Notes under the pieces: model-generated
Told to the model about the DNA's origin: nothing
The model's input: only the letters and a program-made list of their open reading frames with translations
Databases searched by the model: none
Shown here: piece by piece, positions 4,993 to 57,935 of the stretch
How the letters are laid out: each line of letters opens with the position of its first letter
How positions within the stretch are numbered: the stretch's first letter is position 1
DNA from: Candidatus Woesearchaeota archaeon
GTDB taxonomy: Archaea > Nanobdellota > Nanobdellia > SCGC-AAA011-G17 > GW2011-AR18
Assembly (NCBI GenBank): GCA_018302105.1
Contig: JAGWAD010000009.1
Coordinates: 1 to 60,133 of the forward strand
Direction: 5' to 3'
DNA length: 60,133 nucleotides
Translations under genes and position numbers: made by a program

Positions 4993-5116
4993 GAGCCTGT
5001 AGTCTAACCAGGATATAATAATTGGCTTCGGATAAACTTCAATGACTAAAAGCTATTTATGCTTTGGATGACTTAGAAGTAACCAATAGATGAGGGTTCA
5101 AATCCCTCCAGGCTCA
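4993..5116 (+). tRNA. tRNA-Arg(UCG) with 50-nt intron at 37/38 (5032-5081)
   Basis: Acceptor stem GAGCCTG/CAGGCTC; anticodon stem ATTGG/CCAAT; TCG at 5028-5030; T arm GAGGG-TTCAAAT-CCCTC; BHB with CTTC/GAAG central helix. Confidence 0.93.
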
Positions 5117-10137: not shown

Positions 10138-10893
10138 TTAAATAACTAAATCCCTAATTTCTTTTTGCAAGTTTATTCCTTTATCATAAATTTCTATTGA
10201 TCTAAGGTGGGGAGAATGGTATCCTTTAATCTTAAAGTCTTCTGTAAAAAATTTATCAACATTTTCTGTTCCTATTATTAATCTGAATTCTTTATGGATT
10301 GTATATTCTGATTTATATTCTGAAATTGCTCCAAAGTGTAACCAATTTGCATCGTCATTTTCAGTTTTATAATCTACAAATAATAGATAAGGAAGTGCTA
10401 TTCCATGCTTTAGTATTTTGTAATCTCCTTCAAGCATTAATCCTTGCATTATATGGCTAATTTCTACATTTAGAGATATTGTTGGTTCTGTAGTAATATC
10501 AAATCCAATTTGAGTAAACCATATTTGATCTGGAAATGAATAAAAATCTGCAAGAAATCTTCCTTTTTCTGTAAATGGATTATATAAGCTTAGAAATGGA
10601 GGTTTTATTTTGCCAAAAGCCAAAGCTAAATGATCATCATCCTGATCCATTCTTTGATTATATCTTATTTCTGCTAAAACTAATTCCCCATTTTTTGATT
10701 CTAATTCTTGTTTTAATTTTCTAAATTTGTTTTCATATTCTAAATTTCCATCTAACCACAATAATACATTGTCTGTTATTTCATCTCCGCTAGTTTCTCC
10801 ATTTAGAATTCTTTGTCTTAGTTCTTTATGCAATTTTTTATCTTTTGAATTTCTATAATCTTCAATTTTTTGAATTAATCCAGAATTTTGCAT
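10138..10893 (-). CDS. Hypothetical protein
   Basis: 251-aa ORF; no motif recognised. Confidence 0.7.
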   Translation of the reverse strand: MQNSGLIQKIEDYRNSKDKKLHKELRQRILNGETSGDEITDNVLLWLDGNLEYENKFRKLKQELESKNGELVLAEIRYNQRMDQDDDHLALAFGKIKPPFLSLYNPFTEKGRFLADFYSFPDQIWFTQIGFDITTEPTISLNVEISHIMQGLMLEGDYKILKHGIALPYLLFVDYKTENDDANWLHFGAISEYKSEYTIHKEFRLIIGTENVDKFFTEDFKIKGYHSPHLRSIEIYDKGINLQKEIRDLVI

Positions 10894-13484: not shown

Positions 13485-13573
13485 AAAGCTTTATAAACCT
13501 TGCTTTTAGGTGAAAAATTCACTACACCACAATAATAAGAAAAGTTTTTAATTAGTTTTTCTTAAAAAGAGTT

Positions 13574-42748: not shown

Positions 42749-43177
42749 GTAGGCAAGGAATAAGCCACCTTTTGTAAAAGCCAAACGTAAACGTGTTGTC
42801 GTAAGACCTAAGTCATGTGACGTGCGTTGCCGCGATGCTTTTTCTTAACATTCTACTAAGCGCATATTTCGGTTAAGCGAATTTCGTTAATCCGACCTTC
42901 TGCTTGCACTGTTCAGGTCTTTCGTTTCATCGTATCCAATAGAGACGTCAGCAAGTTAACTCAGCAACAATTTCTTGTGCCTTCTTTGTATCATTCCAAT
43001 TCTATTGGCCGTGTCGTTTCTATAAAGTTGCCTTCCCTTTCAGGAACCCTTATGGGCAAACCCGAATATCGGTAGACGACAAGCGCCTAAGTGGGCGGAC
43101 TTTCCTCACAACCCGCAACAATTTGTCGCTTATGACTTCCTTGTTGATTGGGTGCGTTTGCTAAGTTCCTTACCTAC
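42749..43177 (-). ncRNA. rnpB: RNase P RNA
   Basis: P1 GTAGGTAAGGAA/TTCCTTGCCTAC; GAGGAAAGTCC; AGAAAC; TGAAACG; GTGCAAG; 3' ACAAAAGGTGGCTTA; GC-enriched; TTTATAAA at 43200-43207. Confidence 0.93.
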
Positions 43178-47953: not shown

Positions 47954-49582
47954 ATGACAAATCAACAACAACCAATTTATATTTTATCAGAAGGAAGCCA
48001 AAGAACTGCTGGCAGAGACGCACAAAAAATGAATATTATGGCAGCTAAAGCTGTAGCAGAGACAGTTAGAACAACTTTGGGACCTAAGGGAATGGATAAA
48101 ATGCTTGTTGATTCTCTAGGAGATATAGTTGTTACTAATGATGGAGTTACAATACTTCAGGAAATGCAGATAGAACATCCTGCTGCTAAAATGGTTGTTG
48201 AAGTTGCTAAGACTCAAGAAAATGAGGTTGGGGATGGTACTACGACTGCAGTTATTCTTGCGGGTGAATTATTAAGCAATGCTTTAAAATTATTAGAAAA
48301 AAATATACATCCAACAATTATTATAAAAGGATACAGAATGTCTGCTGAAAAGGCACAGGATATTCTTGGAAATATTGCTGTAAAAATAAGTATTAAAGAT
48401 ACTGATCTTTTGAAAAATATTGCAATGACTGCTATGACTGGAAAAGGTGCAGAAGTTGCTAAAGATAGATTAAGTGAATTAATTGTTAAGGCAATAAAAA
48501 GTATTATGGAAGAAAAAAATGGGGAAGTGGCAATAGATGCTGATAATATTAAACTTGAAAAGAAAGTTGGTGCTGGTATAGAAGATTCTGAATTAATTGA
48601 TGGTTTAGTTTTAGATAAAGAAAAAGTACATATTGCAATGCCTAATGCAATAAACAATGCTAAAATTGCATTACTTGATGTTGCTTTGGAAGTAAAAAAT
48701 ACAGAGATAGATGCAAAAATACAAATTACAGATCCTAACCAAATGCAGGCTTTCATAGATATGGAAGATAAAATGTTAAAAGACATGGTTGAGAAAGTTG
48801 TAAAATCCGGGGCTAATGTTGTTTTCTGCCAAAAGGGAATTGATGATCTAGCACAACATTATTTAGCTAAGAAAGGAATTTATGCTGCAAGAAGAATAAA
48901 GAAGAGTGATATGGATAAACTTGTAAGAGCTACTGGTGGAAATCTTGTGAGTAATTTAAATGATTTATCAGCTAGTGATCTTGGTTTTGCTGCTTTGGTT
49001 GAGGAAAAGAAATTTGGAGGAGAAGAATTAACTTATGTAACAGGATGTAAAAAAGCTAAAGCTGTAACTATGCTTATTAGAGGCGGAACACAGCATGTTG
49101 TTGATGAGGTTGAAAGAGCAATTAAGGATGCTATTGGTGATATGGTTGCAGCACTGAAAGTTGGAAAAGTTGTTGCAGGTGCCGGATCTACTGAAGTTGA
49201 ATTAGCAAGAGGATTAAGAAAATTTGCTAATTCCTTAAGCGGAAGAGAACAATTAGCTGTGTTGGCTTTTGCAGATGCTTTGGAAGCAATACCAATAACT
49301 TTAGCTGAAAATGCAGGATTAGATCCTATAGATAGCTTAACTGAACTTAAAGCTTCACATGATAAAGGACAAGTCTGGGCTGGATTGGATGTATTTACTG
49401 GAAAAGTTGTAGATGCATGGAAAAGGGGAGTAATTGAACCATTGAAAATTAAAACACAGGCTATAAAATCTGCTTCAGAAGTTGCTGAATTAATTTTGAG
49501 AATAGATGATGTTTTAGCTTCTGGAAGTAAACCTAGTCCTGGTGGAATGCCACATATGGGACATGGCGGATTTGGAGAATAG
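47954..49582 (+). CDS. ths: Thermosome (group II chaperonin) subunit
   Basis: [22 protein letters not shown] and GGM tail; GGAGG SD upstream. Confidence 0.98.
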
Positions 49583-50738: not shown

Positions 50739-52121
50739 TTTTTTTATTATTGGCATGCCTTTTGTATCATCTATATAATAGCCTTGTGACTTAATAGACT
50801 CACGCAATTCGTCTGCTAATTTAAAATTTTTATTTTTTCTTGCTTCTTCCCGTAAATCAACCAGGCGACTTATTTCGTCAGGTATTTCTGTTTCTGTTTC
50901 TAAAATTCCAAATATTTTGTCTATACTTAGCATTAATTCTTTTATTTTTTTTATATCTAGTTCTGATAATTTTTCTTCTGCTATTAATTTATTTATTTCT
51001 TTTGTAAATCCAAATATTACTGTAATTGCATTATGAGTTTCAAAATCGTCATCCATTGCATTTTCAAATTCTTTTTTTGCTTTTCCCAGTAATTCATCCA
51101 ATTCTATATTATCTTTTGATTTTGACTTGCAATTTTCTAATTTTAGCATGAATTCATTTAATTTTTGAAGTGAATTTTTTGCTTGTTCTAAAGACTCTTC
51201 TGAAAATTCCAATGGTTTCCTATAATGTGTTGACAAAAACATGAATCTTATTATCTGTTTATTGTATTTTTTTATAACATCTCTAACTATCCAGAAATTT
51301 CCTTTTGATTTTCCCATTTTCTCCTTATTAAATTGTAAGAATCCTGTATGTAACCAATATTTTACAAATGGTTTTTTTCCTGAAATTGCTTCCATTTGTG
51401 CAATCTCTGCTTCATGATGTGGAAATATTAAATCTATAGCTCCCCCATGTAAATCATATTGCTGGCCTAATTCTTTTTCTGTTATTGCTGTATCTTCTAT
51501 ATGCCATCCCGGTCTTGAATCGCCTAATTCAGTATGCCATACTGGTTCTTCTGGTTTTGAAAATTTTAATAAACAGAAATCACCTTTGTTTCTTTTTTCT
51601 GGGTTTTCATCTATTCTTGAAACTGCATCATCTTCTTCTAAAGAAGTCCTTTTTGCTAATTTACCATATTCTCTGAATTTAGACAAGTCAAAATAGTAAC
51701 CATCTGAGATTTTATATGCAATTCCTTTTTCTATTAATCGTTTTACCTGAGATACTATTTCTGGAATATAATCTGTAGCTCTTGCATACTTGCTTACAGC
51801 ATCGTTTCCTAGCAATTTCATGTCTTCTAAAAATATTTTTTCATATTTTCTTGAAATATTATCCCAACCAGTCTTTTCTTCATTTGCTTTTTTTATTATT
51901 TTGTCGTCTATGTCTGTTATATTCTGCAAGTAAAAAACCTTGTAATTTTTATATCTTAAATATTTTGCAATAAAATCAAAATTTGTAAATGTTCTTGCAT
52001 TTCCAATATGTGCATAATCGTAAACTGTCGGGCCACATACAAACATTTTTACTTCTTTATTGTTTATTGGTCTGAACTCTTCTACTTTTCTTGTTAATGT
52101 GTTATAAAACTTTAATGTCAT
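50733..52121 (-). CDS. cysS: Cysteine--tRNA ligase
   Basis: CGPTVYD, HIGN, RPGWHIE, DLIFPHHE and KMGKS. Confidence 0.97.
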   Translation of the reverse strand: MTLKFYNTLTRKVEEFRPINNKEVKMFVCGPTVYDYAHIGNARTFTNFDFIAKYLRYKNYKVFYLQNITDIDDKIIKKANEEKTGWDNISRKYEKIFLEDMKLLGNDAVSKYARATDYIPEIVSQVKRLIEKGIAYKISDGYYFDLSKFREYGKLAKRTSLEEDDAVSRIDENPEKRNKGDFCLLKFSKPEEPVWHTELGDSRPGWHIEDTAITEKELGQQYDLHGGAIDLIFPHHEAEIAQMEAISGKKPFVKYWLHTGFLQFNKEKMGKSKGNFWIVRDVIKKYNKQIIRFMFLSTHYRKPLEFSEESLEQAKNSLQKLNEFMLKLENCKSKSKDNIELDELLGKAKKEFENAMDDDFETHNAITVIFGFTKEINKLIAEEKLSELDIKKIKELMLSIDKIFGILETETEIPDEISRLVDLREEARKNKNFKLADELRESIKSQGYYIDDTKGMPIIKKL

Positions 52122-52197
52122 AATTAATTTAGTTTCTAATTTATTTATCTTCTTTTCTATTGGATAGACTTTTAAATTTTATTGTGGTTTTAATCTT

Positions 52198-53643
52198 ATG
52201 ACTGATAATGGAAAAATTACTACAAGAGAAGAGTTTGGCAGATTATTAAATAAAAAAGCAGGGCAAAAATATGGTAGCATTGATAATATATTGGTTAATC
52301 TGAGTTTTGATTACCAACGATATTATACTTATAAAAATGGCAGAAGCTTTCTTCGTTATCCACAAGATTTAGATAGAATTTGTGAAAAGTTAGGAATAAA
52401 CCAAGAAGATTTGGATTTATCATCTTTAGTTTCTAAGAAATATTATAGATCATTTGGCTTAAAAATTAATGGTACTTCACAAGATCAAGTTCCTAAACTT
52501 GATGCGTCAATTATTAATGAATCAAAGCCTCAAACTGAGTTAAAACATGAAATGGAATATAAGCCATTTGTGTATAATATAGGAGAAAATTCTGAACATG
52601 GCTTAATAGTTGGAAAATCACAAGAGATGAAATCTATTTTTATAATTTTGGGTAATATAATAAAAAATCCAGACCAAGAACAACCAGTTTTAATAACTGG
52701 AGAAACAGGAACTGGAAAAGAATTAATTGCTAAGGCAGTGCATTATAACAGTAATAGAAAAAACAGTCCATTTTTTCCAATAAATATTACAAATATAAAT
52801 GAAAATTTGCTTGAGTCTCAATTGTTTGGTTCCAGAAAAGGAGCTTACACAGATGCTAGAGAAGATAGTATTGGCTTTTTTGAAGAAACAGGAAATGGTA
52901 CTATATTTTTAGATGAAATAAGCAATATGCCCTTGGAAGCGCAAGCTAAATTACTTAGGGTATTAGAATCAAGAACTTTTTATAGGGTTGGTGATACTAA
53001 GTCAAGACAATTTAATGGCAGAATTATTGTAGCTACAAATGAGAATCTTGAAAAGTTAGTTGAATCTAGAAAATTTAGACAAGACTTGTTTTACAGACTG
53101 AATGTTGTTGATATTGATCTGTCTTCTTTGAGAGATAGAAAAGATGACATTGGTCTATTATTCAATTATTTTGTCTGTGAATACAACAATAAGTATAAAA
53201 CATCTTATTTAAAAGAGCCAACTGATAAAGGAAAGGAATTACTTCAATCTTATAATTTTCCTGGAAATGTCAGGGAACTAAAAAATTTAATTTATAAGGC
53301 AATATTTAATTTTCCAGAAAGTGAAAGTGTTTTAGTTGAAAATTATATTCAAATAAAAGATTTAAAATTTAAAAAAACGCAAAAATCTGATTTTAATACA
53401 GAAGGTATTGCTTTTGCTGATAGTGTGATTTCTTATTTTGAAATTGATAATAAGTCCAAGTTTGAAATTGCAGAACTTAGAGTAATATTGGAAGCTGCTT
53501 TTAATACAAAAGTTGTCATGATCAAAACTGCTGAACTGCTTGAAATCAGTAGAAAAACCTTATGGCTTAGATTAGAAAACTTTGGAGTAAGTGCAACAAA
53601 TTTAAAACAATATTATCTGCAATATATATCAAACAATCGATAA
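52198..53643 (+). CDS. Sigma-54-interaction-domain AAA+ ATPase (bacterial enhancer-binding protein type)
   Basis: GETGTGKE, ESQLFG, GAYTDA, FLDEI, QAKLLRVL, FRQDLFYRL, FPGNVREL and a C-terminal Fis-like HTH. Confidence 0.93.
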   Translation: MTDNGKITTREEFGRLLNKKAGQKYGSIDNILVNLSFDYQRYYTYKNGRSFLRYPQDLDRICEKLGINQEDLDLSSLVSKKYYRSFGLKINGTSQDQVPKLDASIINESKPQTELKHEMEYKPFVYNIGENSEHGLIVGKSQEMKSIFIILGNIIKNPDQEQPVLITGETGTGKELIAKAVHYNSNRKNSPFFPINITNINENLLESQLFGSRKGAYTDAREDSIGFFEETGNGTIFLDEISNMPLEAQAKLLRVLESRTFYRVGDTKSRQFNGRIIVATNENLEKLVESRKFRQDLFYRLNVVDIDLSSLRDRKDDIGLLFNYFVCEYNNKYKTSYLKEPTDKGKELLQSYNFPGNVRELKNLIYKAIFNFPESESVLVENYIQIKDLKFKKTQKSDFNTEGIAFADSVISYFEIDNKSKFEIAELRVILEAAFNTKVVMIKTAELLEISRKTLWLRLENFGVSATNLKQYYLQYISNNR

Positions 53644-53721
53644 TTCTTAATTAATTTTTACCTAGTGAATAGAGAGTAAGCTTAATAAATAGTCTCTTAT
53701 TGTGGCTATTTGCAAGCAGAG

Positions 53722-55191
53722 ATGAAAACAACACTATTTACTGAAAATTTAACTGAATTAAGAACAGAAGCCTTAATTATCGGATTATATGATGATTGTG
53801 ACAGCAGTGATGTAGAAAGTTATGAAAATATTTCTGATGGTTTAATAAGTGATATAATAAAAGACAAGGAATTTACTGGGAAGTATGGGCAGATTTCTAT
53901 AGTTAGAACTAAGAAAGCGATAAAACGAATTATATTATTAGGATTAGGAAAAAGAAATGAATTTGATCTGAATAAGGCAAGAGAACTGGCTGGAAAAGCT
54001 GCTTTATTTGTTAAAGATAAATGTGTGAAAGAATTTAGTTTTTTAATATTTGAAGATTTAATGCCTGGAGATGCAGCATATGCAATTGTTGAAGGAACAA
54101 AATTAGCATTATATCAATTTATAGATTTTAAGACACAAGACTTAGAAGATTTTAAACAAATTGAGCAATTTACATTAGTTGCAAATGGAAATAATTTTAT
54201 TGATATTGATAAAGCAATAAAAAAAGCATTAGTTGTTTCTGATGCAATTTATTATGTAAGGGGACTGCAAAATAAACCAAGCAATATTGTGACTCCAACT
54301 TATCTTGCAAATGAAGCGATTAAGTTAGCAAGAAGATTCCAGATTAAATGTACAATATTTGAAAAAAAAGATCTTGTTAAAATGGGTATGGGTGGAATAT
54401 TAGCTGTAAATAAAGGAAGCCAACACCCTCTAAAATTTATAGTTTTAGATTATAATGGTGGAAAAGAAACTATCTGCTTTGTTGGCAAAGGCATAACTTT
54501 TGATTCTGGAGGAATTTCTATTAAGCCTGCTGCTGATATGGATGAGATGAAATTTGATATGAGCGGAGCTGCTACAGTATTTGGAATAATTCAATTAGCT
54601 GCTATTTTAAAATTACCTTATAGAATAATTGGTTTAATTCCTGCAACTGAAAATTTACCTGGAGGCAATGCTTACAAACCAGGAGATATAATAAAACATT
54701 ATAATGGCAAAACAAGTGAAATAATAAATACTGATGCTGAAGGAAGATTGGTTTTAGCTGATGCATTGGCTTATACTAAAAATTATAATCCAAAAGTTGT
54801 TATTGATTTTGCAACATTAACAGGTGCCTGCGTTGTTTCTTTGGGAGATGTTTATACTGGCTTATTTACAAATAGTAATGAACTTGCAAATAAATTATCA
54901 GAAGCTGGAGAAAAATCTGGAGAATTAGTATGGAGATTGCCATTGCATGATAAATATAAAGATTATATTAAGAGCAATGTAGCAGATTTAAAGAATGCAG
55001 GACCAAGAGATGCTGGTGCAAATACTGCTGCTGTCTTTTTAAAAGAATTTGTTCAATGTAAAAATTGGGCACATTTAGATATTGCTGGAACTGCATGGAC
55101 TAAAAATGGAAAAGATCCTATAAGGCCTGTTGGTGGAACAGGTGTTGGAGTTAGGTTGGCTTTAGAATTTTTAGAGAACTGGAAGAAATAA
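53722..55191 (+). CDS. pepA: Leucyl aminopeptidase (M17)
   Basis: GKGITFDSGG, MKFDMSG, NTDAEGRL and HLDIAG; ATG 53722 preferred. Confidence 0.96.
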   Translation: MKTTLFTENLTELRTEALIIGLYDDCDSSDVESYENISDGLISDIIKDKEFTGKYGQISIVRTKKAIKRIILLGLGKRNEFDLNKARELAGKAALFVKDKCVKEFSFLIFEDLMPGDAAYAIVEGTKLALYQFIDFKTQDLEDFKQIEQFTLVANGNNFIDIDKAIKKALVVSDAIYYVRGLQNKPSNIVTPTYLANEAIKLARRFQIKCTIFEKKDLVKMGMGGILAVNKGSQHPLKFIVLDYNGGKETICFVGKGITFDSGGISIKPAADMDEMKFDMSGAATVFGIIQLAAILKLPYRIIGLIPATENLPGGNAYKPGDIIKHYNGKTSEIINTDAEGRLVLADALAYTKNYNPKVVIDFATLTGACVVSLGDVYTGLFTNSNELANKLSEAGEKSGELVWRLPLHDKYKDYIKSNVADLKNAGPRDAGANTAAVFLKEFVQCKNWAHLDIAGTAWTKNGKDPIRPVGGTGVGVRLALEFLENWKK

Positions 55192-55234
55192 ATTTAATAC
55201 TTAAGTTTTTTAATTCTTCTATTTTAATTAATTT

Positions 55235-56164
55235 ATGAATATTTTTAAATTAAAAGGCAAAGCAATTTTAAGTCCTATGGCTGGAGTTACAGATGCAGCT
55301 TTTCGTATTCTTGCAAAAAGATATGGTGCAGGTTTAGTATATACAGAATTAATAAGCAGTGCAGCTTTAGTAAGAGCTATTAATAAAACTAATTATTTAA
55401 TTCAAACAAGTGAAGAAGAAAAGCCTGTTGGAATACAATTATTTGGAAATAATGCTGAAGAAGTAGTTGAAGCAGCTAAAATTGTTCAGGATAAATTTGA
55501 TTTTATTGATATTAATTGTGGATGTCCTGCATGGAGTGTTATAAGAACAGGTTCTGGGAGTGAATTATTAAAAAATCCTGAAAAAATAAAAATATTTGTT
55601 GAAAATTTAGTTAAAAATGTTAATATTCCTATTACTGTAAAAATCAGAATCGGAATTAATGATAAAAATATTAATGCTGTTAAAGTTGCTAAATTAATTG
55701 AGGAAGCAGGAGCAAGTGCTATTGCTGTTCATGGAAGAACCAGAGAACAAGGTTATTCTGGAACTGCCAATTGGGATGTAATAAGTGAGGTAAAATCTAA
55801 TGTTGAAATTCCAGTTATTGGCAATGGTGATGTTTTTACTCCTGAGAAATTTAAAGAATGTCTGGATAAAAGCAAAGTAGATGGGATAATGATTGCAAGA
55901 GGTGCTATTGGGAATCCTTACATATTTAAACAAATTAGTGATTTTATCAGTACTGGAAAATATAGTAAACTTGATAATAAAAAAATATTTTTTGAATATC
56001 TTGACTTAGCTAAGAAATTTGATATTAATTTTAATCTTATTAAAGGACATGCTATTTCATTTACTAAGGGAATAGAAAAAAGTACTGAATTAAGAAATGA
56101 ATTAGGCAAAACAAAAGATATTGATGAAATTATAAAAATTTATGACAATATAGTCAACAGGTAA
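55235..56164 (+). CDS. dus: tRNA-dihydrouridine synthase (DusB-like)
   Basis: LSPMAGVTD, DINCGCP, VHGRT, GNGD and MIARG. Confidence 0.94.
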   Translation: MNIFKLKGKAILSPMAGVTDAAFRILAKRYGAGLVYTELISSAALVRAINKTNYLIQTSEEEKPVGIQLFGNNAEEVVEAAKIVQDKFDFIDINCGCPAWSVIRTGSGSELLKNPEKIKIFVENLVKNVNIPITVKIRIGINDKNINAVKVAKLIEEAGASAIAVHGRTREQGYSGTANWDVISEVKSNVEIPVIGNGDVFTPEKFKECLDKSKVDGIMIARGAIGNPYIFKQISDFISTGKYSKLDNKKIFFEYLDLAKKFDINFNLIKGHAISFTKGIEKSTELRNELGKTKDIDEIIKIYDNIVNR

Positions 56165-56194: not shown

Positions 56195-56518
56195 ATGTTA
56201 CCAGGCTTAAATCCAAAACAAGTTGAACAAGCAATGAAAAAACTTGGAATTAAACAAGAAAACATTGATGCTTATGAAGTTGTAATAAAAACTGACGGAA
56301 AGAATCTGGTAATAAGAAATCCAAATGTCACTTTAATTAAAATGCCTGGAAATGAGAGTATACAGATTACTGGAGATATAGAAGAGGAATCAGTTATAAG
56401 TGAAGATGATGTTAATACTGTTGCAGAGCAGGCCAAGGTATCGAAAGACGAGGCTAGAAATGCGCTAGAACGGAATAATGGTGATTTGGCTGCTGCTATA
56501 ATGGAGTTAAATAAATAA
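56195..56518 (+). CDS. nac: Nascent polypeptide-associated complex protein
   Basis: AMKKLGI, EVVI and UBA-like EARNALE..GDLAAAIM. Confidence 0.95.
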   Translation: MLPGLNPKQVEQAMKKLGIKQENIDAYEVVIKTDGKNLVIRNPNVTLIKMPGNESIQITGDIEEESVISEDDVNTVAEQAKVSKDEARNALERNNGDLAAAIMELNK

Positions 56519-56519
56519 G

Positions 56520-56942
56520 TTGAAAATCTATAATTATTTAGATAAAGCAAATGAATGTTTTAAAGTTGCAGTTAATCTCTACTCTTTTAATTACCTTAAT
56601 GATAAAAAGATTTTATTTGCTATTATAAGAAATTTGTATGATTCAGGCTTAAGTTCTATTTCATTATTTTATGAAAAAATATATAAAGAAAAAGATATAT
56701 CCATTTATGAAGGAAATTTGGATTTTATGGAATATATTGATAAAAATATAGTTATTGTAAATAAATTAAAGTCAATTTTAGAAAAGCATAGAGTTAGTAC
56801 TGTTGAATTTTTTAGGAATGATAATTTAGTAATATGCAGTGAAAATTATAGTGATTTAGAATTAATTGACAATAAGAAATTAATGCAATATTTTAAATCT
56901 GTTAAACTGTTACTGGAGGCTGCAAATGTACGAGGAATATGA
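56520..56942 (+). CDS. Hypothetical helical protein
   Basis: TTG start right after nac; VEFFRND resembles EEFRKN of the next gene. Confidence 0.6.
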   Translation: MKIYNYLDKANECFKVAVNLYSFNYLNDKKILFAIIRNLYDSGLSSISLFYEKIYKEKDISIYEGNLDFMEYIDKNIVIVNKLKSILEKHRVSTVEFFRNDNLVICSENYSDLELIDNKKLMQYFKSVKLLLEAANVRGI

Positions 56943-57369
56943 TGTTGTCCAGCCAGAAGAGGAATTGAAAAGGGCTGATCATTTAGTATATGTCTCTCTG
57001 AAATATACAAGGACATGTGATATTATGAAAAATGCAGTTAAAAGATTAATTACTGCTTTTGAATTAGCTATGACTGAATATTTGGAAGCTATGAAAAAGA
57101 AAAGGAAGATAAGTGAAGTTCCTGCTACTGTAAAAGAAAGGGCAATAATTGTAAAGGATTTAATTGGCAATCCAATAAATAAATATATGGCATTGTATAA
57201 TCTTTTGAAAAAAATTGATAAATCAGATTATTCAGCTTATGAAGAATTCAGGAAAAATGTCACTCTAGTTACAAAGGGAGACAAACCTATATCAATTAAA
57301 GTTGAAGATTTGTATAATTATTTAGAAACTACAAAAATGTTTGTTAAATTCATAAGAGAAAGAATGTGA
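56926..57369 (+). CDS. Hypothetical helical-bundle protein (HEPN-like topology possible)
   Basis: EEELKRADHLVYVSLKYTRT; overlaps the upstream gene. Confidence 0.7.
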   Translation: MYEEYDVVQPEEELKRADHLVYVSLKYTRTCDIMKNAVKRLITAFELAMTEYLEAMKKKRKISEVPATVKERAIIVKDLIGNPINKYMALYNLLKKIDKSDYSAYEEFRKNVTLVTKGDKPISIKVEDLYNYLETTKMFVKFIRERM

Positions 57370-57467: not shown

Positions 57468-57935
57468 ATGTATACTAATAGTGAAATTCAAGCAGCATTT
57501 GATATATATTGTAAAAGGACTGATGCTGTTAGAGATATTCTTAAACTTGCCCCATTAAATGCTAATGATATAAATAAAATAGTTCACTCTGGAGAAAGAT
57601 TCATGGTTATAGAACATATTTGCCAAATGGGAATGGCAGGTATTTATGAAGATGAGATCAGGATATGTACTGAATTATTATTGCAGCAAAATCCAGAAAA
57701 ACCAATAAATTCAGATTTTACAGAAGAATTTGCAAGTATGCCATTGGAAGTAGAAAGAAAACCTTTTTTCATGGTTGCTTATTCAGAAAGAATTTTTGAT
57801 TATGTTATTGGTCATACAAAATTAGAAAGGCAGTTACCAAAAGCAAGGATGTTATCAACTGATAAAGGAACTTTGTTTTATTTAGCGCGAGAGGAAGACA
57901 TTAACAGAGCTTTTCATTCAATTGATATTTTTTAG
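57468..57935 (+). CDS. Hypothetical protein
   Basis: 155-aa ORF with upstream TTATAAA. Confidence 0.65.
   Translation: MYTNSEIQAAFDIYCKRTDAVRDILKLAPLNANDINKIVHSGERFMVIEHICQMGMAGIYEDEIRICTELLLQQNPEKPINSDFTEEFASMPLEVERKPFFMVAYSERIFDYVIGHTKLERQLPKARMLSTDKGTLFYLAREEDINRAFHSIDIF

Follow-up and report, generated by a model that had tools for sequence, protein, structure and literature searches.

An enhancer-binding-protein-type ATPase with an N-terminal XRE-type helix-turn-helix in a woesearchaeal genome without detectable sigma-54

The enhancer-binding proteins of bacteria (bEBPs) are seen as strictly linked to sigma-54, which is contacted by the GAFTGA motif in the L1 loop of their AAA+ domain. 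They remodel the closed complex as ATP-dependent hexamers. PspF and HrpS are controlled in trans by PspA and HrpV, respectively, and TyrR and Rhodobacter NtrC no longer have the GAFTGA residues. Among the loop residues of functional bacterial activators, phenylalanine and threonine are the critical ones, and the variants GAYTGA (HrpS) and GSFTGA are functional, according to the accessible parts of two reports (PMC3105312, PMC6615313). The accessible part of a 2025 survey gives no sigma-54-specific EBP in 380 archaeal proteomes, which served there as a negative control (PMC12316311), and we found no paper on bEBPs or sigma-54-like proteins in archaea, with the proviso that supplementary family tables may hold entries. 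Here, we describe a gene for a bEBP-type AAA+ protein on a 60,133-nt contig of a Candidatus Woesearchaeota archaeon. This contig is the whole stretch of DNA that was analysed and is referred to as the window; it belongs to a 1.15-Mb genome (G000, the host genome) of 42 contigs, with 98.3% completeness and 0.45% contamination. The sequence of the protein and those of its relatives mark it as genuine, intact and resident in the archaeon, a member of the bEBP superfamily whose domain architecture is new, in a genome without detectable sigma-54.

The open reading frame (ORF) is intact and encodes a protein of 481 residues (Table 1). The AlphaFold model of the whole protein, with a mean predicted local distance difference test score (pLDDT) of 86.4, consists of an N-terminal domain, a linker, an AAA+ core with its lid, and a helical C-terminal domain. 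The core matched Sigma54_activat with a score of 209.5 bits, compared with a Pfam cut-off of 20.2. Motif names were assigned by aligning the protein to Aquifex NtrC1. The first-pass annotation of this DNA, a reading of the letters alone, had listed intact Walker A and B, arginine-finger and sensor II motifs and an L1 loop reading GAYTDA, and all of these were located in the alignment. Sensor I is VATNENL (aa 278–284), and sensor II, GNVRELKN (aa 356–363), lies inside the lid. The Fis-like C-terminal helix-turn-helix (HTH) of the same annotation is borderline: HTH_8 scored 19.8 bits on the whole protein and 22.5 bits on the last 102 residues alone, around the cut-off of 22, and the model has helices at residues 441–448 and 452–461. 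At the N-terminus, no Pfam match to a receiver (REC), GAF or PAS domain was found, in agreement with the earlier reading.

The nearest proteins in a word-indexed protein database were three unnamed ones (P0003, P0004 and P0005; 41–47% identity), followed by bacterial NtrC/PilR-type regulators that aligned over the AAA+ part only (44% identity, 251 bits). Near-identity to a bacterial gene, for which the first-pass annotation had allowed, was therefore not found. An exhaustive search of 1.84 billion representatives returned 158,598 proteins at E ≤ 0.001. Among the best 150 matches, 13 aligned with the N-terminal domain included, beginning at residues 5–8 or, for P0147 and P0149, at residue 34. 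Clustered at 50% identity, the proteins with this N-terminal HTH (N-HTH) form a clade with about 20 clusters. The full-length form was found in three further genomes, G006, G013 and G015, which belong to the taxonomic family of the window organism but to other genera, so that DPANN homologues combining N-HTH and AAA+ domain, as envisaged earlier, do exist. These three and the host genome supply the four clade members proven to be archaeal, the unnamed representatives carrying no taxonomy.

The 19 clade sequences compared are 35–48% identical to the window protein, and the residues of the ATPase motifs are invariant throughout, with P355, G356, N357, R359 and E360 of the sensor II region invariant or nearly so. 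The invariance of the Walker B glutamate and of the arginine fingers suggests ATP hydrolysis rather than mere binding. The L1 loop is almost as constant: its first position is G in 19/19 sequences, the second A or S (11 and 8), the third F in 18/19, the fourth T in 19/19, the fifth G or D (10 and 9) and the sixth A in 18/19. Tyrosine at the third position occurs in the window protein only, and aspartate at the fifth is shared by the nine clade members with an NtrC-type protein of Caldisericum (P0006). The loop has disappeared from other bEBP forms in the phylum (e.g., L010, L011 and L125); its retention is thus not automatic, and in this clade it looks as if it has been kept by selection. Those orthologues for which DNA is available are only 44–49% identical, and their synonymous sites are therefore saturated.

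The N-terminal domain, which the first-pass annotation had likened to an XRE/Cro-type HTH, folded alone into five helices with a pLDDT of 94. Its Foldseek matches were all of XRE type (HipB, lambda cI, C.BclI, ClgR, C.AhdI and SinR), weak by E value (0.24–0.8) but with probabilities of 0.75–0.99 and best root-mean-square deviations of 2.1–2.5 Å over 62–63 residues. Among 17 N-domains of the clade, Pfam recognized HTH_26 in eight, HTH_31 in four and HTH_3 in three, and a profile of the domain matched C.BclI in the PDB with an E value of 6.8e-4. As a stand-alone protein, the domain is nearly absent from the database: four short proteins matched at E ≤ 0.001 among 386 candidates, and two of the four come from contigs of <1 kb, probably as fragments.

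The members of the clade differ in architecture. Both HTH domains are present in 11 of the 19 members, whereas five have the N-HTH only, duplicated in two of them; a third two-copy protein, P0124, has two N-HTH copies as well as the C-terminal HTH. Two members lack the N-HTH and one is truncated. Since five members have no C-terminal HTH, the N-HTH can be the sole DNA-binding domain. Some unnamed proteins of 600–1000 residues (P0004, P0122, P0123, P0126 and others) have two bEBP-type AAA+ domains in tandem; in P0004, the one whose sequence was inspected, each of the two carries a GAFTGA-type loop.

Phylogenies against bEBPs were built from the AAA+ domain. The FastTree tree had 281 rows, with P0009–P0121 (bar six), P0002, P0005, P0149 and everything from P0271 onward left out as duplicates or non-family proteins. 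A quick IQ-TREE tree had 134 rows; excluded from it were L015, as a long branch, L123, which duplicates L009, and the majority of the unnamed representatives. Outgroups were 80 bacterial loci among the matches listed in a contig pattern search, whose patterns are too generic to inform archaeal distribution. The N-HTH proteins formed one group of 20 rows in both trees (SH-like support, 97), and a short GAFTGA-bearing protein of genome G010 was its sister (21 rows; support, 98 and 97). The group is nested among bacterial bEBPs, with no supported sister there. As to whether the phylum's bEBPs have one origin or several, the best tree needs seven changes, while well-supported branches force only one. 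A strong bEBP domain is rare: of 240 genomes from the order, 11 have one at E ≤ 1e-20, and of 401 high-quality genomes from the phylum, 26 have one at E ≤ 1e-30, the latter count including the unpublished G439. We conclude that the gene is resident and vertically inherited in one family of Woesearchaeota-type DPANN archaea, and that the XRE-type N-terminal HTH was acquired lineage-specifically in that family.

The surroundings of the gene are archaeal. An archaeal RNase P RNA (42749–43133), a thermosome gene (47954–49582) and NAC (56195–56518; PF01849, E = 1.5e-13) lie on the contig, the latter two having been placed in the same run of genes by the first-pass annotation, and the contig further holds alaS, cysS, the M17 aminopeptidase gene pepA, and dus. 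The bEBP gene lies head-to-head with cysS and has pepA on its other side. In G006, of another genus, the order pepA, bEBP gene, cysS is the same, and the protein is 49% identical. The composition is as AT-rich as that of the neighbours, as had been noted before: the GC content is 0.281 for the coding sequence and 0.274 for the window, and at third codon positions it is 0.166 for the bEBP gene, 0.142 for pepA and 0.157 for the thermosome gene. In NCBI, the proteins of relatives are labelled “Candidatus Woesearchaeota archaeon” or “Nanoarchaeota archaeon”.

We considered the possibility of a chimeric assembly, which the first-pass annotation had raised. An identical protein is recorded on 16 contigs from several sources. 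A contig of run X1, possibly the source of the assembly, spans 52014–55300 without differences; contigs of run X9 cover 51874–52494 (one difference) and 53427–53764, and contigs of runs X10 and X12 cover 52027–52306 and 53377–54797, respectively. Both gene junctions are thus bridged by contigs of the four runs with 0–1 differences, which excludes a chimera. The only difference within the gene across these contigs is T52352C, which replaces leucine 52 by proline.

The promoter is also of archaeal type. The TTTTAAA box that had been placed 21–27 nt upstream of the gene was borne out, and in each of the four N-HTH clade genes taken from genomes it precedes the ATG by exactly 21 nt; at this spacing it was not present in the two short-form bEBP genes inspected, those of G010 and G031. 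Throughout the host genome, starts of TTTAAA peak at positions −31 to −27 relative to start codons, with 92 starts compared with about 3 per position elsewhere (861 crude gene calls). A TATA box at such a position is the pattern expected for archaeal leaderless genes. The spacing predicts a leaderless or near-leaderless mRNA for the bEBP gene, and the genomic peak suggests that leaderless genes are common in this organism. Because its TATA-like box sits at the position preferred in the genome, the bEBP gene appears to be wired to the host transcription system. No convincing palindrome was found in the 76-nt spacer upstream of the gene. The 9-mer TTATTGTGG occurs just upstream of both the bEBP gene (52179–52187) and pepA (53697–53705), and again on the minus strand at 10756–10764 and 13527–13535, giving four copies in the window compared with 0.77 expected. 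Genome-wide there are 20 copies (rough expectation, about 14) in mixed locations, and the 9-mer is not conserved upstream of the gene in G006; for these reasons it was dropped as a candidate binding site.

An rpoN in the host genome would have spoken against the first-pass annotation, but no sigma-54 was detected there. The Pfam profiles Sigma54_DBD (PF04552), Sigma54_CBD (PF04963) and Sigma54_AID (PF00309) gave nothing significant there, the best E value being 0.105 for AID. A profile made from the short sigma-54-like proteins of relatives (see below), searched with filters off against all six-frame ORFs of this genome, gave a best E value of 0.2. Sigma70_r2 had no match in the genome; a Sigma70_r4 match of 21 bits falls within the TFB gene. 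Since the genome is 98.3% complete in 42 contigs, the absence of sigma-54 is probable rather than proven. No sigma-54 DNA-binding domain (DBD) was found in G006, G013 or G015 either. Sigma-54 promoters were sought with the consensus TGGCAC-N5-TTGCW. One exact match and 27 matches at ≤1 mismatch were found in the host genome, compared with 0.3 and 19.1 ± 3.9 in simulated sequences (a first-order Markov model, which ignores coding structure), and 25 of the 27 fall inside ORFs of ≥90 residues. No clear set of −24/−12 promoters was seen among the matches at ≤1 mismatch, the set whose locations were inspected.

Because no sigma-54, no Sigma70_r2 match and no clear set of −24/−12 promoters was found in the host genome, whereas TBP and TFB are encoded there, the protein most probably acts independently of sigma-54. 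The reading we favour is that of a sigma-54-independent, ATP-driven and DNA-tethered regulator of the archaeal transcription machinery, which we judge to have about an even chance of being right. Such a protein would be tethered as an oligomer near its target promoters by the N-HTH, together with the C-terminal HTH where present. ATP binding and hydrolysis would then move the L1 loop, G-[AS]-[FY]-T-[GD]-A, which would engage a partner (a basal factor, RNA polymerase or promoter DNA), leading to either activation or repression. In a more specific and rather doubtful version, the loop has been kept because the motor grips a component of archaeal initiation (TFB, TFE, RNA polymerase or the promoter bubble), providing enhancer-style, ATP-dependent control of a TBP/TFB promoter; if true, this would be a mode of regulation not known in Archaea. 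Alongside this, a stripped-down sigma-54 DNA-binding protein has been kept by some members of the family (see below), a hint at the import of a bacterial sigma-54/bEBP module that was later rewired to serve the archaeal polymerase. The first-pass annotation had proposed that the ATPase was repurposed as an ATP-gated regulator of TBP/TFB/TFE transcription, as a sigma-54-independent repressor, or as a factor directed at a bacterial partner. That the ATPase has in some way been diverted from the sigma-54 holoenzyme of bacteria is still the simplest reading, given that no sigma-54, Sigma70_r2 match or clear promoter set was found, but none of the three options is singled out and nothing in the analysis speaks for a bacterial partner.

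Several observations weigh against the favoured reading. No target, binding site or partner was found, and an all-against-all comparison of ORFs from 28 bEBP loci found no neighbour common to the four N-HTH loci beyond the synteny between the host genome and G006. At ≤2 mismatches, there are 459 sigma-54 promoter matches in the host genome compared with 309 ± 20 simulated, positions having been inspected for the set at ≤1 mismatch only. The window protein's own N-domain matches Pfam only as HTH_19 (E = 0.016), so that its XRE/Cro assignment holds at the level of the family, by Pfam, PDB profile and Foldseek, but is weak on its own sequence alone. This domain also has leucine at residue 52, where the clade consensus has proline in an F-P motif after helix 3; proline at this residue is seen in another run and in two database variants of the window protein. 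The known sigma-54-independent relatives in bacteria have lost the GAFTGA residues, and the conserved loop therefore argues for a sigma-54-like partner. Finally, short proteins with a sigma-54 DBD exist in the family of the window organism, in G002 and G010, and G010 also holds the sister of the clade.

These last points bear on an alternative that we consider unlikely, though it survives best among the rivals: classical bEBP action through an unrecognised sigma-54-like adaptor, either a diverged descendant of a short sigma-54-DBD protein or a mimic of region I. In its conservation the L1 loop resembles that of working activators, and Sigma54_DBD matched six genomes out of 240 from the order and six out of 401 from the phylum, nine genomes altogether. 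The proteins concerned have 265–329 residues, with an RpoN-box-like ARRTVTKYR at the end, and are annotated as “hypothetical protein” by NCBI; their genes adjoin archaeal genes, such as those for dnaG primase and Elp3. Together with the sigma-70-type genes reported in DPANN archaea, Woesearchaeota included, in the accessible text of Castelle et al. 2021 (PMC8204110), they make the statement in the first-pass annotation that archaea have no sigma factors too strong. In G002, the bEBP gene and the short sigma-54-DBD gene are about 7.5 kb apart on one contig, and G010 combines its short protein (E = 8.9e-27) with the clade's sister, whose GAFTGA is intact. However, the similarity of the short proteins to sigma-54 is confined to its DNA-binding part (residues 336–475 of the Klebsiella and E. 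coli proteins, and the Aquifex structure 5UI5). A core-binding domain is undetectable in them, and region I was not detected by Pfam, PDB profile or NCBIfam, the resemblance at their N-termini being by eye only. Their profile matches G002 and G010 but not G006, G013 or G015, and neither it nor the Pfam DBD, CBD and AID profiles find anything in the host genome. Furthermore, 24 of the 26 bEBP genomes among the 401 have no sigma-54 DBD, and four of the six sigma-54-DBD genomes have no bEBP; since only two genomes overlap, the two proteins are not an obligate pair. Both overlapping genomes nevertheless belong to the family of the window organism.

A second alternative is a repressor or activator that binds DNA and senses ATP, nucleotide binding serving just to govern oligomerisation, as it does in TyrR or NtrX, with an L1 loop that makes no contacts. 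The presence of two HTH domains, the C-terminal one borderline, and the lack of sigma-54 fit this, and there are bacterial precedents in VpsR and in NtrX, the latter among the NCBIfam matches; the accessible part of the source on VpsR describes it as lacking the residues needed for sigma-54 contact. In these precedents, however, the loop has decayed, whereas F/Y and T have been kept here in 19/19 sequences at 35–48% identity, and loop-less forms do exist elsewhere in the phylum. The invariant Walker B glutamate and arginine fingers, which suggest hydrolysis, also speak against nucleotide sensing of this kind, and we regard it as improbable.

A non-transcriptional AAA+ remodeller, acting for example in defence or RNA repair like the CARF-AAA-HTH proteins of RtcR/PspF type, is very improbable. 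The best PADLOC match was indeed RtcR_PspF2--CARF_AAA_HTH, over the AAA+ and HTH parts, and the best PDB profile match of the N-domain was the controller protein of a restriction-modification system. However, there is no CARF domain, the N-domain being an HTH; the neighbourhood is one of housekeeping genes (cysS, pepA, dus, thermosome and NAC), with no defence or rtc genes adjacent; and RtcR is itself a transcription activator, according to the accessible text on it (PMC4012209). It is scarcely credible that the gene is a functionless passenger of horizontal transfer, encodes an effector aimed at the sigma-54 of a bacterial partner, or is an artefact of assembly or binning (the last already largely refuted), since the bacterial ancestry of the family, nested as it is among bacterial bEBPs, and its patchy presence in the order (11/240 genomes) are outweighed by a frame and motifs intact across a deep clade, host-like composition, an archaeal TATA box at conserved spacing, synteny across genera, junctions bridged in several runs, and a contig with archaeal RNase P RNA, thermosome and NAC in an assembly with 0.45% contamination. 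Nothing suggests export, because a protein with two HTH domains would be expected to bind DNA in the cytoplasm.

Some further features of these loci may be described here. Past NAC, the window has three ORFs without a Pfam family (56520–56942, 56926–57369 and 57468–57935), and a homologue of ORF 56926–57369 also adjoins NAC in genome G020. The same genome has a degenerate bEBP homologue (L015:1312–2238, minus strand), with a Walker A motif reading GELGTEKE and the loop lost, next to NAC and to this homologue; it sits roughly in the neighbourhood of the window gene and may be a decayed copy. In four genomes of another family of the class (L122, L125, L126 and L129), a short-form bEBP gene lies tail-to-tail with a gene for a class II (Asp/Asn/Lys-type) tRNA synthetase. 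This adjacency, and that of cysS to the window gene, may be coincidence or plain synteny. At 4993–5116 of the window, Rfam found a 124-nt tRNA gene that ARAGORN missed, as expected for an intron-bearing archaeal tRNA.

Table 1. Features of the bEBP-type gene and protein (window coordinates) and genes of the short proteins with a sigma-54 DNA-binding domain in relatives (coordinates in each locus).
Feature	Position	Strand	Remarks
Coding sequence of bEBP-type AAA+ protein (P0001), stop included	52198..53643	+	N-terminus aligns from residue 1–7 with homologues
TATA-like box TTTTAAA	52170..52176	+	21 nt ahead of ATG
N-terminal XRE/Cro-C1-type helix-turn-helix, five helices, aa 4–88	52207..52461	+	AlphaFold pLDDT ~95
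Disordered linker, aa 91–121	52468..52560	+	pLDDT < 50; length and sequence variable in clade
Sigma54_activat AAA+ core, aa 137–306	52606..53115	+	Pfam E = 3.5e-62; genome search gives matching coordinates
Walker A GETGTGKE, aa 168–175	52699..52722	+	G168, E169, G171, G173, K174 and E175 invariant in 19/19 clade sequences
L1 loop GAYTDA, aa 215–220	52840..52857	+	Counterpart of sigma-54-contacting GAFTGA
Walker B GTIFLDEI, aa 234–241	52897..52920	+	D239, E240 and I241 invariant
Arginine-finger stretch FRQDLFYRL, aa 293–301	53074..53100	+	R294, D296 and R300 invariant
AAA+ lid, aa 312–374	53131..53319	+	Pfam AAA_lid_14, E = 1.3e-15
C-terminal Fis-type helix-turn-helix, aa 424–460, borderline	53467..53577	+	HTH_8
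Short sigma-54-DBD protein, L026	1000..1986	+	
Short sigma-54-DBD protein, L027	1456..2391	-	
Short sigma-54-DBD protein, L028	1459..2397	-	
Short sigma-54-DBD protein, L029	913..1872	+	
Short sigma-54-DBD protein, L030	1516..2310	-	
Short sigma-54-DBD proteins, L114 and L135–L137			

An archaeal lineage maintains a whole bEBP clade whose sigma-54-contact loop is constrained, whose promoter is archaeal and whose DNA-binding head is new, although no sigma-54 was detected in the genomes. This amounts to a natural experiment on which partners besides sigma-54 the L1 loop can have, and may provide the first handle on ATP-dependent control of transcription in Archaea. Apart from the sigma-70 genes of Castelle et al. 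2021, in the available main text of which the word “enhancer” does not occur (PMC8204110), DPANN archaea have in the short sigma-54-DBD proteins a second, unreported piece of the bacterial transcription apparatus.

Among known systems, the best solved relative is NtrC1 of Aquifex aeolicus (PDB 1NY5, 1NY6, 4L4U and 3M0E), which matched residues 143–376 with an E value of 2e-61. The archaeal protein shares with NtrC1 and the NtrC family the AAA+ core and lid, the Walker motifs, arginine fingers and sensor II, the GAFTGA-type loop and, borderline by its score, a Fis-type C-terminal HTH. It differs from NtrC1 in having an XRE-type HTH instead of the receiver, and in a host without sigma-54. Of the NCBIfam equivalogs, 27 families matched, and none of the 25 among the matches listed reached its cut-off; the best scores were 266.7 bits for PrdR (cut-off, 795) and 251.8 bits for ntrC (558.6). 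The highest-scoring profile was RtcR_PspF2 CARF-AAA-HTH (PADLOC PDLC01995; Makarova et al. 2014, PMC4012209), with 274.8 bits over model positions 161–480 of 481; here the archaeal protein has the XRE HTH in place of the CARF sensor, and no rtc or restriction-modification context. PspF, matched at E = 1.3e-50, and HrpS are bEBPs without a sensory domain, and HrpS naturally has the loop tyrosine, as GAYTGA, and works with sigma-54, as stated in the accessible part of PMC3105312. Unlike these two, which act on the sigma-54 holoenzyme, the archaeal protein has an extra N-terminal HTH and a genome without sigma-54. In combining a bEBP-type AAA+ domain with an HTH, and in probably acting without sigma-54, it resembles TyrR, VpsR, NtrX and Rhodobacter NtrC; TyrR and NtrX were among the NCBIfam matches, far below their cut-offs. 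By the feature of the loop, however, which is kept in 19/19 clade sequences, the archaeal protein is not of the TyrR, VpsR or NtrX kind.

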